Of a stretch of DNA of 64,000 nt, positions 18,001 to 21,000 are shown in pieces. Each line of letters opens with the position of its first letter. Within the stretch, counting starts at the first letter, position 1. A program made the position numbers. The stretch is from an uncultured delta proteobacterium (GTDB taxonomy: Bacteria; Desulfobacterota; Syntrophia; Syntrophales; UBA2185): NCBI GenBank assembly GCA_963729715.1, contig CAVSPA010000007.1, positions 96,001-160,000 of the forward strand, given 5' to 3'.

Positions 18001-21000
18001 AAGCTCCCCATATATATCGAAGAGACGCTCCTCGATTTTCAGAAAATGCTCATCAATGCCGGGAGGAAGGGGCTGCTCGCGGAGATGGCGACCGAAGACC
18101 TTCTCCGTATACTGTCCCCGCAGCCGGTCAAGGTGGCAAGATAAGGCATGCCGCCGACCGCAGAATAACGAGGAAGCCTGTCAGCAGAGGCTCTCCTGGA
18201 GAAAGGGTCACACGTGATGGATGTAGAAAATACCGTCCTTGTCTGCAAAAAATGCGGCGCGAAATACAGTGCTCCTCAGGATCGTCTTCAATGCGGACGC
18301 TGTCATGCCCCCCTTCTTGTCGGTGAAAGGAAAATCGTAGCCCTCAATGTCTCTGACGTCGACTTCGCCCGCGAGGTTCTCGCCTCTCCATGTCCTGTCC
18401 TTCTCGTGACGTGGGCACCGTGGTGCGCATACTGCCGCATGCTTCATCCTATCATCGAGCGCATCGCCGCAGAGTACAAAGACCGGCTGAAGGTGGCCAG
18501 GCTGAATGTCGAAGATAATCCGGCAGTGTCTTCACAATACGCAGTCCAGGGCGTCCCGACAATACTTATGTTTAAGGACGGAAAGCTCGTAAACAAGATG
18601 GTAGGTGTGCTTTCAAGGGAAGAGATCGAAAGACAGATGAAGGTGGTCTTGAGGGTCGACTCCGGGGATGCTGCACCTGACTCTTGATATTTCTATTTTC
18701 ACTGGCTTAGCCATATCAGGACATGTGAATTTGAAGTGAAATGCTGCTCCATTTCTTCGCTTTTCCAAGAAAATTAAATGATCTAACAAAATAAAGTCGC
18801 CAACTATTTACATACCCGCTTTTCTCTGATATAAGGCTTACCAACATAAAATCATTATCAGGCCATCGAAGCTCTCCGCAGCTTGCTGCGGAGAGCTTCA
18901 ATACGTAAGGAAGGAGAAATGTATGAGTAAACGAAAGGCGGCCGACGCCAAGAGCTGGGTGGAGAAGGCCGTAGCTTTCTATAAAGATTCCGGCAAGAGA
19001 ATAGCGCTAGCCGAATATTCGAACCCCGAGGGACAATTTGTGCAGGACGAAAGGTATATCTATGTATTGAGTCTCAAGGGGACCATGCTCGCGCATGGCA
19101 TCAATGAAAAATTTGTGGGTGAGGATTTCAGCGACGTCAAAGACTACGACGGCAGGACCTTCATTAAGACAATCATCAGGAAGGCCAAGGCTGAAGGCAG
19201 CGGCTGGGTGAACTATAAATGGTACCACCCTGTAACCGCGCAGATGGTGCCCAAGACTGTGTATTTTGAGAAGATCGATGATCTGATTATTTGCAGCGGC
19301 GACTATACGGAATTCTCCAAGGGCGTAGCCCTGCTACACGATCCGATGCTGAATAAAGGAACCGCTTTTACAGAGGCGGAGCGCGATGCATTGAAACTGC
19401 GCGGTCTTCTACCGCCGCATGTTCAAACACAGGAAGAACAGGCAGGGCGGGTTATGGACAATTTCCGAAAAAAACCCAACGACCTGGAACGCTATATCCA
19501 GTTGATCGGCCTGCAGGACCGCAATGAGACGCTTTTCTACCACGTCGTGATGAACAACATCGAGCAAATGATGCCCATCATCTATACGCCCACCGTGGGC
19601 CAGGCCTGCCAGGAATACGGCCATCTATTCCGCCGTCCGCGGGGCCTTTACCTATCAATAAAAGACAAAGGCAGAATTGCAGAAATCCTGGAGAACTGGC
19701 CTTACAAGGACATACGCATCATCGTTGTGACCGACGGCGAGCGCATCCTGGGTCTCGGCGACCTCGGTGCATTCGGCATAGGCATACCGGTCGGCAAGCT
19801 TTCTCTCTACACGGCCGCTGCCGGCGTCCATCCGTCGTATGCCCTGCCTGTGCTGCTGGATGTCGGCACGGAAAACAAGACTCTGCTGAATGATCCTCTT
19901 TATACGGGCATATTCCAAAGGCGGGTTCGCGGCAAGGCATACGATAGCTTCTTTGCGGAATTCGTGAAAGCCGTACATAAAGTGTTCCCGAAAGCACTGA
20001 TCCAGCTTGAGGATTTCGCCAACATCAATGCCTTCCGTCTGCTTCACGAATACAAGAACCGCACCTGCATTTTCGATGATGACATACAGGGAACAGCTTC
20101 CGTAGTGCTGGCCGGAGCTTATTCCGCCTTACGTATCACCAAGGGTCAGATGAAGGATCAGAAGTTCCTCTTCCTCGGCGCCGGCGAGGCCGGCATAGGC
20201 ATCGGCGATCTCATCGTTTCCGCGCTGGTCGAAGAAGGCATGACAATTGAGGAAGCCCGCAAGCGATGCTGGTTCATGGATTCAAAGGGTCTGGTGGTAA
20301 AGAGCCGCCTGGGACTCGCCGAGCATAAACTCCCATACGCGCACGACTACCGATCCTGCCCGGATCTGCTCGCGGCCATCCAAACGCTCAAGCCTACCGC
20401 ACTCATCGGCGTATCGGGCTCTTTTAAGGGCTTCACGCAACCAATAGTGGAAACCATGGCAAAGCTCAATGAGCGCCCCATCATCTTCGCACTCTCGAAC
20501 CCGACGTCGAAAGCCGAATGCACGGCGGAAGAGGCTTACACCTGGTCTGCCGGCCGCGCCGTCTTCGCGAGCGGGAGTCCGTTCCCACCAGTCACGCTCG
20601 GCGGTCAGACCTTCAGGCCGGGCCAGGGAAACAACGTCTATATCTTCCCCGGAATGGGTCTGGGCATCATCGCGTGTGAAGCAAAGCATGTAACCGACCA
20701 GATGTTCTTGACGACGGCGAAGTCCCTGGCCGGCCAGGTCCTGGAGAGCGACATCGCGGAAGGCCGCGTCTATCCGGCGTTGAATAGGATCCAAGAGGTC
20801 TCCATCGCCATAGCGGTAGCAGTGGCTGAAGTCGCCTACAAAGAGGGCCTTGCACATAAGAAGAGACCGGCAGATCTCCTGGCCTACATCAAATCGCAGA
20901 TGTACAAGCCGATTTACCAAAGCTACATCTAAGATGTGAGACGAGAAGCGGGAACTGGGGTAGATTCTTAGACTATCGCGTTAGCGGAACAAAGCGGTAT

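Follow-up and report, generated by a model that had tools for sequence, protein, structure and literature searches.

Why should a central metabolic enzyme carry a sensor domain that is best known from receptors? Cache domains rank, to our knowledge, as the chief extracellular sensors of prokaryotes, and the only output described for them is the membrane helix that follows. The gene g02402, which lies in the stretch of DNA analysed here (64,000 nucleotides, "the window"), departs from this picture. The initial annotation described its product as a 669-residue protein with an N-terminal Cache domain, a malic enzyme (ME) body and no leader, and the open reading frame, Pfam and hydropathy all bear this out. 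The frame of 669 codons and its start Met are identical in eight genes from seven genomes. Table 1 lists the features of the locus.

Table 1. Positions of the Cache–ME gene, its upstream signals, domains and predicted pocket in the window
Feature	Position	Strand	Basis
Candidate sigma-70-type promoter, TTTACA-N17-TATAAG	18807..18835	+	putative; read from sequence only
Shine-Dalgarno GGAAGGAG / region AAGGAAGGAG	18907..18916	+	6 nt 5' of ATG; read from sequence
Whole Cache–ME gene	18923..20932	+	ATG start, 669 codons plus stop (ORF list, translation)
Cytoplasmic sCache_2 domain, residues 1–131	18923..19315	+	Pfam, AF2, Foldseek, family profile
Stretch with predicted ligand pocket	19055..19255	+	HMM alignment to PscD-SD
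Pocket residue Y45	19055–19057		
Pocket residue H58	19094–19096		
Pocket residue Y98	19214–19216		
Pocket residue W100	19220–19222		
Pocket residue K111	19253–19255		
Pocket residues Y47, L49, F80, I81, I84			
Seamless junction, residues 126–136	19298..19330	+	alignment A2
Complete large-type ME body, residues 132–669	19316..20929	+	Pfam, NCBIfam, structure-family alignment
Pfam malic, residues 198–378	19514–20056	+	1.4e-75, profile 1–182/182
Pfam Malic_M, residues 388–639	20084–20839	+	1.1e-97, profile 1–258/258

A cytoplasmic Cache domain joined to a complete malic enzyme

Residues 37–129 match sCache_2 (Pfam PF17200; E-value 9.4e-17, 61.8 bits against a cut-off of 25, profile positions 53–142 of 155), and residues 39–130 match dCache_2 (8.7e-18). 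The Pfam matches reported earlier were thereby recovered, the sCache_2 E-value differing trivially from the previous 2.5e-17. The poor AlphaFold confidence noted at that time for the Cache part disappeared when an alignment of 47 sequences was used, which gave an AF2 model with a pLDDT of 91.7 and a pTM of 0.87. The model has helices at residues 2–23, 25–32, and 80–91 and strands at 44–50, 54–58, 93–102, 107–118, and 121–128. In a Foldseek search with this model, the best 10 of at least 500 matches were all sCache_2 chemoreceptor sensors of solved structure (TMq 0.63–0.80, E-values from 6.7e-10 to 2.7e-8); TlpB also appears among the structural matches. A profile of the Cache family searched against the PDB likewise returned sCache_2 sensors in five of five matches (5g4y, 4.5e-17; 4k08, 3.8e-16).

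Neither a signal peptide nor a transmembrane (TM) segment was found in g02402. The N-terminal 40 residues reach a maximum KD12 of 0.19, and the sole 19-residue window of the protein that reaches 1.5 is the Rossmann motif at residues 415–433. A canonical sCache_2 domain lies outside the cytoplasm between two TM helices and has a long N-terminal helix that runs into the first of them; in g02402, the N-terminal helices cover residues 2–32 only, and positions 1–52 of the sCache_2 profile are without a match. The domain is an sCache_2 homologue in a non-canonical location, which is cytoplasmic because the protein has no leader or TM segment and the partner is an NAD(P) enzyme.

The initial annotation took Cache domains to be extracytoplasmic, but no more than 78% of them could be assigned with confidence to the outside of the cell by Upadhyay et al. 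2016 (PMC4822843), and the same source describes Diacid_rec and YkuI_C, two Cache-clan families, as principally intracellular, so that the premise was too strong. These two share the intracellular location with the g02402 domain but form families of their own, whose outputs are signalling or transcriptional. As to sCache_2 itself, the survey names chemoreceptors (1534 of 2243) and kinases (356) as the main carriers (PMC4822843).

The remainder of the protein is a complete ME. The NCBIfam model PRK13529 (oxaloacetate-decarboxylating malate dehydrogenase) matches residues 132–668 with 742.8 bits, versus a cut-off of 326, while the scores for the malolactic enzyme model NF041582 (527.1 bits; cut-off, 850) and the hybrid MaeB model NF009501 (48.2 bits; cut-off, 1178) stay below threshold. 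Residues 133–668 align with positions 2–540 of pigeon ME (1gq2, E-value 1.4e-197), and the ME body aligns with the human ME2 structure 1efk (2.3e-184). The motifs YTPTVG, PVGKL, EDF, DDIQGT, GAGEA(G), and SNPTSKAE are intact, being identical or conservative in the 1gq2 alignment; we take them to comprise the Tyr and Lys of catalysis, the metal-binding Glu/Asp/Asp set, and the dinucleotide motif GAGEA. The D-S-K that follows the second Rossmann strand, together with a Lys aligned with that of the pigeon "PEKEHF" segment, presumably reflects a resemblance to NADP-type enzymes. Pfam detects no phosphotransacetylase-type (PTA) domain in g02402, which ends with the ME body. Within this genome, g02402 is the sole match to Malic_M (13 of 14 control genomes were matched), and the Cache–ME fusion is the organism's only malic enzyme.

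The two parts meet without a linker. In alignment A2, the final strand of the Cache domain leads straight into the conserved start of ME Domain A. Residue 132 corresponds, in the alignment with human ME2, to residue 23, the first residue of that domain. The Cache domain stands in the place of a tail of 0–57 residues, mostly 10–20 long and basic, in the unfused enzymes. Position 127 is D or N in 12 of 12 fused rows, whereas V, I, A, or F occupies it in the 13 of 13 stand-alone rows shown. Confidence in the full-length model is 62–81 over residues ~121–160, with a pTM of 0.74, and the relative placement of Cache domain and ME is therefore not defined by the model; a complex prediction pairing residues 1–131 with the ME body (132–669), run without controls, returned "no answer" with a score of 0.00, which speaks neither for nor against an interaction.

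The predicted ligand pocket and the relatives of the domain

The HMM alignment to PscD-SD places Y45, H58, Y98, and K111 on PscD Tyr90, His103, Tyr143, and Lys156, which Brewster et al. describe as the hydrogen-bond partners of the ligand carboxylate. All four residues are invariant in 123 close relatives: none of them varies in the 10 fused proteins or in the 113 stand-alone proteins of the C4 type. W100 aligns with PscD Trp145, one of the two sandwiching Trp residues being retained in this way. By these alignments, the Cache domain keeps the carboxylate-binding Tyr/His/Tyr/Lys set of C2/C3 sensors, the pocket being predicted from the alignment and a matching order of secondary-structure elements rather than from measured geometry. 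Two pocket-lining residues differ from those of the C2/C3 sensors, Y47 replacing PscD Trp92 and I81 replacing Phe126, and specificity therefore cannot be read off. Lactate-permease fusions were considered as a clue to the ligand and rejected, H58 being replaced by Leu in those secreted copies.

The domain thus has its family and fold in common with the sCache_2 sensors of chemoreceptors (PscD-SD, 5G4Y/5G4Z; Adeh_3718, 4K08; Vibrio parahaemolyticus, 2QHK/4EXO), as well as, by alignment, the four carboxylate hydrogen-bonding residues and one sandwiching Trp. The chemoreceptor domains, however, are periplasmic, sit between two membrane helices, and signal through a C-terminal helix, whereas the g02402 domain has neither TM segments nor such a helix and runs directly into an enzyme.

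Searching the organism's own genome with the Cache domain gave 10 matches, and PF17200 gave the same 10. Four paralogues, at 57–71% identity, start directly at the domain, and five, at 37–42% identity, carry MKK-hydrophobic-AxA signal peptides, which agrees with the four leaderless stand-alone and five secreted copies counted previously. One leaderless copy, g00718 on C4, had been placed directly downstream of an NDK-like gene; a gap of 78 nt separates it from this 388-aa gene, and the stand-alone form is locked to the NDK-like gene in 12 of 12 genomes of the family. Beyond such stand-alone members, which are 130 aa long and of which one lies at C4:312924–313328 in this genome, the leaderless clade is also found fused to the C-terminal end of an MFS transporter and, in soluble histidine kinases that lack TM segments, inserted into the ATP-binding domain HATPase_c after the N-box strand and before the G1 box (best 150 of 3,855 representatives listed in the exhaustive search). 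The ME-fused, stand-alone, and MFS-fused copies have essentially the same pocket, and the kinase-inserted copies keep the polar residues. This Cache clade is deployed in the cytoplasm in several ways, the ME fusion standing next to the MFS fusion, the histidine-kinase insertion, and the stand-alone form with its NDK-like gene, a breadth that the initial annotation understated.

A further enzyme of central metabolism in this genome bears a cytoplasmic domain of the Cache superfamily. This Re-citrate-synthase-like enzyme (C4:297311–299200) combines HMGL-like with MCP-like_PDC_1 at residues 496–599. Its tail is of the MCP-like_PDC_1/dCache_1 type and C-terminal, whereas that of g02402 is sCache_2 and N-terminal, and the enzyme was matched neither by the g02402 Cache domain nor by PF17200 in this genome.

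Origin of the fusion and its proposed function

A repeat of the cluster search confirmed that 11 of the best 120 clusters carry the Cache families, with ME parts 78–96% identical, and that the next ME clusters among those 120 are enzymes of ~555 aa at no more than 75% identity. Searching with the Cache region gave 12 matches, namely the same 11 clusters and one chemoreceptor. Among the 80 best named-genome loci, 10 are fused. In the clusters and loci listed, every fusion belongs to one of two genera within a single Syntrophales family, so the earlier statement that it is limited to close relatives holds. No paper on such a fusion was found by title or abstract, in the repeat literature search as in the original one, and a search for cytoplasmic, intracellular, or cytosolic Cache domains yielded nothing relevant.

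Purifying selection is equal on both halves of the protein: in six pairwise comparisons, dN/dS was 0.08–0.15 for the Cache part and 0.09–0.13 for the ME part. All fused Cache domains group in a single clade (SH-aLRT 95), all fused ME bodies likewise (SH-aLRT 100), and the fusion arose once. In the ME tree, the ME half groups with enzymes of other phyla; a search of 401 genomes of the phylum did not recover the lineage of P0285, the closest unfused enzyme, so that no donor of the ME half can be named. Enzymes at 75% identity that are not fused evidently manage without a Cache domain, and the domain is an add-on and not a requirement.

What, then, might the domain do? On balance, though by no great measure of confidence, we favor a role as a putative cytoplasmic carboxylate sensor that acts in cis on ME Domain A, a known allosteric hub. 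The initial annotation had suggested control by a small ligand, and this part of it stands as the most economical reading because the fusion is real and conserved, the sCache_2 fold genuine, the location cytoplasmic, the carboxylate residues kept, and the attachment to Domain A free of a linker; only its extracytoplasmic premise needs to be relaxed. The Cache domain would bind a small cytoplasmic carboxylate, for which the C1–C4 acids acetate, pyruvate, lactate, propionate, formate, or malate are candidates, and ligand occupancy would alter how the Cache domains are positioned or paired. Since Domain A follows the last Cache strand without a break, such a change would be expected to shift the geometry of Domain A and the dimer interface and so to tune catalysis, giving post-translational, in-cis control of the malate–pyruvate node.

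Two known systems illustrate how this could work. In MaeB, an appended, catalytically dead PTA domain is the acetyl-CoA sensor and has been shown to relay its metabolite occupancy to the active site, as reported by Harding et al. 2021 (PMC7902834). Both proteins combine an ME with an additional non-catalytic ligand-binding domain, which in g02402 is predicted; MaeB, as described there, has a small-type ME, a C-terminal PTA domain, and a hexameric hub, whereas g02402 has a large-type ME and an N-terminal Cache domain. By analogy, the Cache–ME fusion may work like MaeB without being a member of that group. Human ME2, which belongs to the same enzyme class, is activated by fumarate, and Domain A of large MEs is described as forming the dimer interface and the fumarate site and as transmitting to the active site (PMC9801130). 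The Cache domain of g02402 joins the first residue of this very domain, but in ME2 the effector binds the enzyme itself, whereas for g02402 we propose a sensor domain, distinct from the enzyme body, as the agent that acts on this region. The Domain A site is retained in human ME1 and ME3, which nevertheless are reported not to be allosteric (PMC9801130), and attachment to Domain A therefore does not guarantee control.

A bolder and distinctly more tentative reading takes in the whole leaderless clade, which might be a portable cytoplasmic metabolite-sensing module that is wired straight into machinery other than signalling, namely ME, an MFS carboxylate-type transporter, the ATP-binding domain of soluble histidine kinases, and an NDK-like partner. 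One organic acid (e.g., acetate, pyruvate, or formate) could then coordinate flux, transport, and phosphorylation post-translationally. If true, Cache could no longer be regarded as an extracytoplasmic receptor module with a TM helix as its sole output route.

Among the alternatives, a role in assembly or tethering fares best, unlikely as we consider it. The Cache domain would bind its ligand without regulating catalysis and would pair ME protomers or dock to MFS or stand-alone carriers, forming a metabolon at the site of malate/pyruvate uptake. sCache_2 sensors act as dimers in receptors, the fusion gene in one lineage lies two genes from an MFS transporter bearing a domain of the same clade, and the near-identical pocket in all differently attached copies is what a common plug, rather than a tuned regulator, would be expected to have. 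The MFS–Cache neighbour is absent in the window's own genus, however, and a linker-free junction with Domain A, the allosteric part of ME, favors conformational coupling; moreover, a mere tether would not need such strict keeping of the carboxylate-binding residues.

The invariance of these four residues, including the Lys, also speaks against a sensor that controls ME but responds to something other than a carboxylate, for instance to bicarbonate/CO2, to a metabolite derived from a nucleotide or, like TlpB, to urea or amides; sensors that bind acetate, propionate, and pyruvate also give the best matches in sequence and structure. We regard a non-carboxylate sensor as less probable still, even though CO2 is a product of ME and a stand-alone sister of the domain is paired with an NDK-like protein. 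The appearance of the urea/amide sensor TlpB among the structural matches would fit as well, and TlpB is described as having a Tyr90 equivalent that does not touch its ligand (Brewster et al.).

It is improbable that the domain is a degenerate remnant that binds nothing and merely aids folding or stability. Its N-terminal helices span only ~31 residues, the Pfam match begins as late as profile position 53 of 155, and the membrane context of signalling is lost, but its dN/dS is as low as that of the enzyme, the pocket residues do not vary over 123 sequences, and the repeated recruitment of the clade to different partners would be hard to explain for an inert domain. Finally, the idea that mis-assembly or mis-calling joined a stand-alone Cache gene (such genes occur at 71% identity in the same genome) to an ordinary ME gene (the enzyme half groups with those of other phyla) is effectively refuted by the same junction and length in the eight genes from seven genomes, including a closed 2.9-Mb chromosome, by the 11 fused clusters seen on many contigs, by ME homology that begins at about residue 132, ahead of any internal start codon, and by the lack of a stop codon or frame change in the reading frame.

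With cis-acting control of ME by the Cache domain as the preferred reading, the protein gains a wider interest. These organisms live at the thermodynamic limit and need a tight balance of carbon and reducing power. Here, a bona fide sCache_2 domain is found inside the cell, and no linker separates it from the allosteric part of a malate–pyruvate enzyme of central metabolism. Should it control this enzyme, a single soluble polypeptide with a single spectrophotometric assay would make a simple system for following the conversion of Cache ligand binding into mechanical output. In that case, the protein would also be a natural template for ligand-switchable enzymes and would hint at a broader layer of metabolite sensing, so far unnoticed, in syntrophic lineages of the Deltaproteobacteria type. 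Its reach is bounded by the phylogenetically narrow distribution of the fusion and by the uncultured state of the organisms.

Upstream signals and gene neighbourhood

The GGAG of the Shine-Dalgarno sequence is invariant in six of six orthologous upstream regions, and the block that holds the candidate promoter is kept with small changes in five of six genomes; a consensus promoter scan gave no sites under the scanner's own stricter rule. A hairpin in the 5'-UTR was rejected as a conserved regulatory element, being found in only three to four of the six genomes. In a comparison with DNA data sets, 20 had matching words, each with less than half of the sampled words.

We also considered whether the LarA-like gene and the Liv-type ABC genes form one unit with the ME gene, and rejected this. 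The LarA-like gene is oriented convergently with the ME gene, which counts against one unit. In the closed genome G007, moreover, the 16-kb locus contains homologues of neither LarA nor the Liv-type ABC genes, and the ME gene is followed directly by a glycerate-kinase homologue.

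Domain composition and predicted pocket of Cache-ME

Cache-ME combines an sCache_2 sensor (residues 1–131) with a malic enzyme (ME) body (residues 132–669). The checkable factual claims of the initial annotation on this protein all held on re-examination, an ME with an N-terminal sCache_2 domain and no leader being confirmed by the open reading frame, by Pfam, and by a scan of the protein sequence that found neither a leader nor a membrane helix. Pfam places sCache_2 at residues 37–129 (9.4e-17; 61.8 bits versus a cut-off of 25), dCache_2 at 39–130, and complete malic and Malic_M domains at 198–378 and 388–639. 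Residues 132–668 match NCBIfam PRK13529, oxaloacetate-decarboxylating malate dehydrogenase (742.8 bits versus a cut-off of 326). Identities as a malolactic enzyme (527 versus 850) or a MaeB-type enzyme (48 versus 1178) were ruled out by NCBIfam scores. In PDB sequence searches, pigeon malic enzyme 1gq2 aligns over the whole of residues 133–668 (E 1.4e-197), and residues 22–129 match four chemoreceptor Cache sensors. The alignment to 1gq2 shows YTPTVG, PVGKL, EDF, DDIQGT, and GAGEA, which we take to be the catalytic motifs of malic enzymes, all intact. Cache-ME is the sole Malic_M gene of its genome.

The fold of residues 1–133 was predicted with AlphaFold from A1, a diverse alignment of 47 single-domain Cache relatives taken from an exhaustive search (3,855 representatives at E≤1e-3) and a word-indexed search (282 short clusters at E≤1e-10). 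The resulting mean pLDDT of 91.7 (pTM 0.87) overturns the earlier report of a poor model for this part. The ten best Foldseek matches in the PDB are all sCache_2 sensors (4k08, 4exo, 2qhk, 5g4y, and 3ub6-9; TMq 0.63–0.80), with PAS domains ranking next, and a profile of A1 matched exactly five distinct PDB sequences, each an sCache_2 sensor. On this evidence, the Cache part folds well and is a genuine sensor domain. It differs from canonical sCache_2 domains in that its N-terminal helices (2–23 and 25–32) span just ~31 residues and in having neither a C-terminal helix nor flanking membrane helices.

In PscD-SD, the carboxylate of C2 and C3 acids is described as being held by Tyr90, His103, Tyr143, and Lys156, with the ligand sandwiched by Trp92 and Trp145 and the rear wall formed by Phe126 (Brewster et al. 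2016, PMC5062169). In an HMM alignment, the first four correspond to Y45, H58, Y98, and K111 of Cache-ME, and Trp92, Trp145, and Phe126 to Y47, W100, and I81; these putative pocket residues lie on equivalent secondary-structure elements in the predicted model. Y45, H58, Y98, and K111 are invariant in 10/10 fused domains and in 113/113 C4-type proteins (130-residue, stand-alone, leaderless Cache proteins), and occur in 44, 37, 43, and 42 of the 47 rows of A1, respectively. The Trp92-to-Tyr and Phe126-to-Ile changes relative to PscD may alter the size of the pocket.

Distribution and origin of the fusion

A survey of 151 genomes from the order found the query matched over its full length (1–669) in all six genomes of the window's genus and in one genome of another genus within the family; the remaining five genomes of the family gave no ME match to the query. 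In ten genomes from other families the enzymes are unfused (57–60% identity), with alignments starting at residue ~101–132. In a collection of named genomes (the named collection), ten of the best 80 loci, from nine MAG records labeled Syntrophales, Syntrophaceae, or "delta proteobacterium", carry the fusion, and no cultured isolate with Cache-ME was found among these 80. Cache families were again counted in 11 of the 120 best clusters, as initially stated, and unfused relatives with 75% identity manage without the domain. All eight Cache-ME genes examined have 669 codons and start at the same place, and dN/dS is 0.08–0.15 in the Cache part and 0.09–0.13 in the ME part. The fusion is genuine, long-standing enough for selection to have shaped it, and taxonomically narrow.

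Alignments show a seamless junction, where the end of the Cache domain continues straight into an ME segment starting with (F/Y)(S/P)(K/M); the domain replaces a tail of 0–57 residues (mostly 10–20, basic) in unfused enzymes. The D/N at the junction is fusion-specific, stand-alone proteins having V/I/A/F at that position.

A tree of 55 Cache domains contains 39 cytoplasmic-type rows, 38 of which form one clade separate from the secreted copies (SH-aLRT 97); the 39th, P0098, joins this clade with a support of 80. The ten ME-fused domains are monophyletic (95) and group with C4-type proteins (81). In a tree of 33 ME bodies, the fused enzymes form one clade (100) nested among unfused enzymes, unnamed or labeled Verrucomicrobia or "Paceibacterota", in a 19-row group (98), and five enzymes of the same order form a separate clade (100). 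The groupings in both trees suggest that a single event joined a native sensor paralogue to an ME gene of different history, and the history of the enzyme half is possibly lateral. The lineage of P0285, the nearest unfused ME (75%), was searched for in 401 genomes of the phylum and not found.

As a separate observation, one genome of the window's genus (G107) has two Cache-ME genes (L014 and L026), 89% and 80% identical to that of the window, the second on a 4.3-kb contig.

Proposed control of the enzyme

Domain A of large malic enzymes (human residues 23–130) is described as providing both the dimer interface and the site for fumarate, which in ME2 tightens this interface, a change relayed mechanically to the active site; ME1 and ME3 retain the site yet are not allosteric (PMC9801130). 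Residue 132 of Cache-ME aligns with residue 23 of human ME2, which puts the attachment point of the sensor at the very first Domain A residue. Because the sensor is joined to this interface and fumarate-site domain, we propose that a small cytoplasmic carboxylate would occupy the Cache pocket, that occupancy would change how the Cache domains are posed or paired, and that this change, via a rigid junction, would alter Domain A and hence catalysis. The proposal is alike in logic to MaeB, whose appended PTA-like domain is reported to sense acetyl-CoA (PMC7902834). The nearest characterized sCache_2 sensors are reported to bind acetate, glycolate, propionate, and pyruvate (PMC5062169), and sCache receptors sensing formate and C4-dicarboxylates, including malate, are reported elsewhere; Cache-ME itself gives weak NCBIfam matches to the MctS and CtpM sensors. 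The full-length model has a pLDDT of 84.2 and a pTM of 0.74, with a confidence of only 62–81 over residues ~121–160.

The literature searched, subscription journals being outside its coverage, yielded no account of an sCache_2 domain in the cytoplasm or of a Cache–ME fusion. Upadhyay et al. 2016 name Diacid_rec and YkuI_C as the only Cache families that are not principally extracellular, and the C-terminal membrane helix as the only signaling route of extracellular Cache domains. Carrying a Cache-superfamily domain is not, among cytoplasmic enzymes, unique to Cache-ME, because an HMGL-like (Re-citrate-synthase-like) protein of the same genome also has a Cache-like tail. Going by its sequence, that protein is a further, unrelated case of a cytoplasmic enzyme fused to a Cache domain, its tail family, MCP-like_PDC_1, being unlike the sCache_2 of Cache-ME. 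New here are the sCache_2 family, malic enzyme as the partner, and a cytoplasmic clade with many partners.

Genomic context and other carriers of the domain

Coordinates of Cache-ME, its surroundings, and related features
Feature	Location	Strand	Remarks
Cache-ME	window 18923-20932	+	single 669-codon ORF, ATG start
Ribosome-binding site AAGGAAGGAG	6 bases 5' of Cache-ME ATG	+	read from sequence
Candidate promoter TTTACA-N17-TATAAG	window 18807-18835		read from sequence
Perfect 15-bp inverted repeat GAAGCTCTCCGCAGC tt GCTGCGGAGAGCTTC	window 18868-18899		5' untranslated region, just ahead of ribosome-binding site
LarA homologue and Liv-type ABC operon	window 20968-26919	-	convergent with Cache-ME
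HMGL-like (Re-citrate-synthase-like) protein, 629 aa	own genome C4:297311-299200 (L030 1327-3216)		C-terminal MCP-like_PDC_1/dCache_1-type domain 496-599
Stand-alone Cache (130 aa) and NDK-like (388 aa) pair	own genome C4:312924-314560 (L002 1498-3134)	-	
Sigma-54-type -24/-12 element, exact TGGCAT-N5-TTGCT	L023 4012-4026 (G149)		~105 nt 5' of Cache-ME start codon
MFS-Cache transporter, 610 aa	L023 7391-9223 (G149)		C-terminal sCache_2 503-597, leaderless clade

The order ybaK, thioredoxin, Cache-ME is fixed in the window's genus (5/5 other genomes) and occurs in six of the ten fusion loci of the named collection. The Liv-type operon of the window encodes a binding protein, two permeases, and two ATPases, with the LarA-family gene at its end; the product, a homologue of nickel-pincer hydroxyacid racemases, is under every NCBIfam equivalog cut-off (lactate racemase, 331 versus 460; malate racemase, 295 versus 500). 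A convergent LarA-family gene follows Cache-ME in 4/5 other genomes of the genus. The closed genome G007 has no LarA or Liv-type ABC homologue within its 16-kb Cache-ME locus, and a glycerate-kinase homologue directly follows Cache-ME there. Upstream, a consensus promoter scanner returned 0 sites under its own rule in the window region; the inverted repeat is not followed by a T-run and is found in 3/6 orthologous regions, partially in a fourth, with other sequence in two.

In three loci of a second lineage, genes for a histidine kinase and a sigma-54 response regulator precede Cache-ME, the kinase having an SBP_bac_3 sensor in the complete copy of G149, and a binding-protein gene follows Cache-ME in both loci with contigs long enough. 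The G149 order is histidine kinase, sigma-54 regulator, Cache-ME, binding protein, MFS-Cache. The sigma-54 pattern is not enriched in this locus (10 matches versus 12 expected at ≤1 mismatch), so the candidate element is suggestive by its position alone.

The genome under study has ten copies of the Cache domain, one fused to ME, and the four leaderless stand-alone and five secreted copies reported earlier were recovered, with 57–71% and 37–42% identity to the Cache-ME domain, respectively. Two leaderless copies are adjacent at C5:162506-163536, as are two secreted ones at C10:62722-63716. In the Cache tree, each leaderless paralogue (named by contig) pairs with one fused form: C4 with ME, C7/C5b with MFS-Cache and a 301-residue protein (99), and C5a with a kinase insertion (84). 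MFS-Cache is encoded two genes downstream of Cache-ME in G149; a crude hydropathy scan gives 10–13 hydrophobic segments, so that 12 TM segments and a C-terminus on the cytoplasmic side are expected, not proven. In the 301-residue protein, an unassigned N-terminal half precedes a leaderless-clade Cache domain. P0054, P0028, and P0031 are metagenome-encoded soluble histidine kinases, lacking TM segments, whose HATPase_c is interrupted by the Cache domain after the N-box strand and ahead of the G1 box; P0054 has a cNMP_binding-HisKA-HATPase_c architecture with the cyclic-nucleotide-binding domain N-terminal. No published account of a sensor placed inside the ATP-binding domain of a kinase was met, although no literature search was aimed at it. 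The predicted pocket is near-identical in ME-fused, stand-alone, MFS-fused, and 301-residue copies, save F for Y at 47, and the kinase-inserted copies keep Y45, H58, W100, and K111, with 80/81 variable and F at 98 in one. P0160, a chemoreceptor with a C-terminal Cache domain, groups with the secreted copies and not with the leaderless clade.

In the genome under study, the C4-type gene lies 78 nt downstream of the NDK-like gene, whose product has three NDK-family stretches. The two genes stand side by side in the same orientation in 12/12 family genomes searched and in 20 of the 70 non-fusion loci among the best 80 of the named collection; the pair may be a two-subunit form of the sensor–enzyme arrangement.

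Among the matches listed, P0014, P0019, and ~60 others are secreted relatives forming long tandem arrays (16 copies in 2,099 residues; 38 matched stretches in 4,876 residues; many four-copy proteins of ~550–600 residues), most with signal peptides or lipoprotein boxes. P0067 and P0094 are single chains in which a signal peptide and two Cache domains precede an L-lactate permease, and Leu replaces the conserved pocket His. Two further loci (L062 2420-3205 and L076 2501-3205) encode a leaderless Cache domain and, after it, ~105 residues that match thioredoxin-like [2Fe-2S] ferredoxin weakly and below the cut-off (E ~1e-3).
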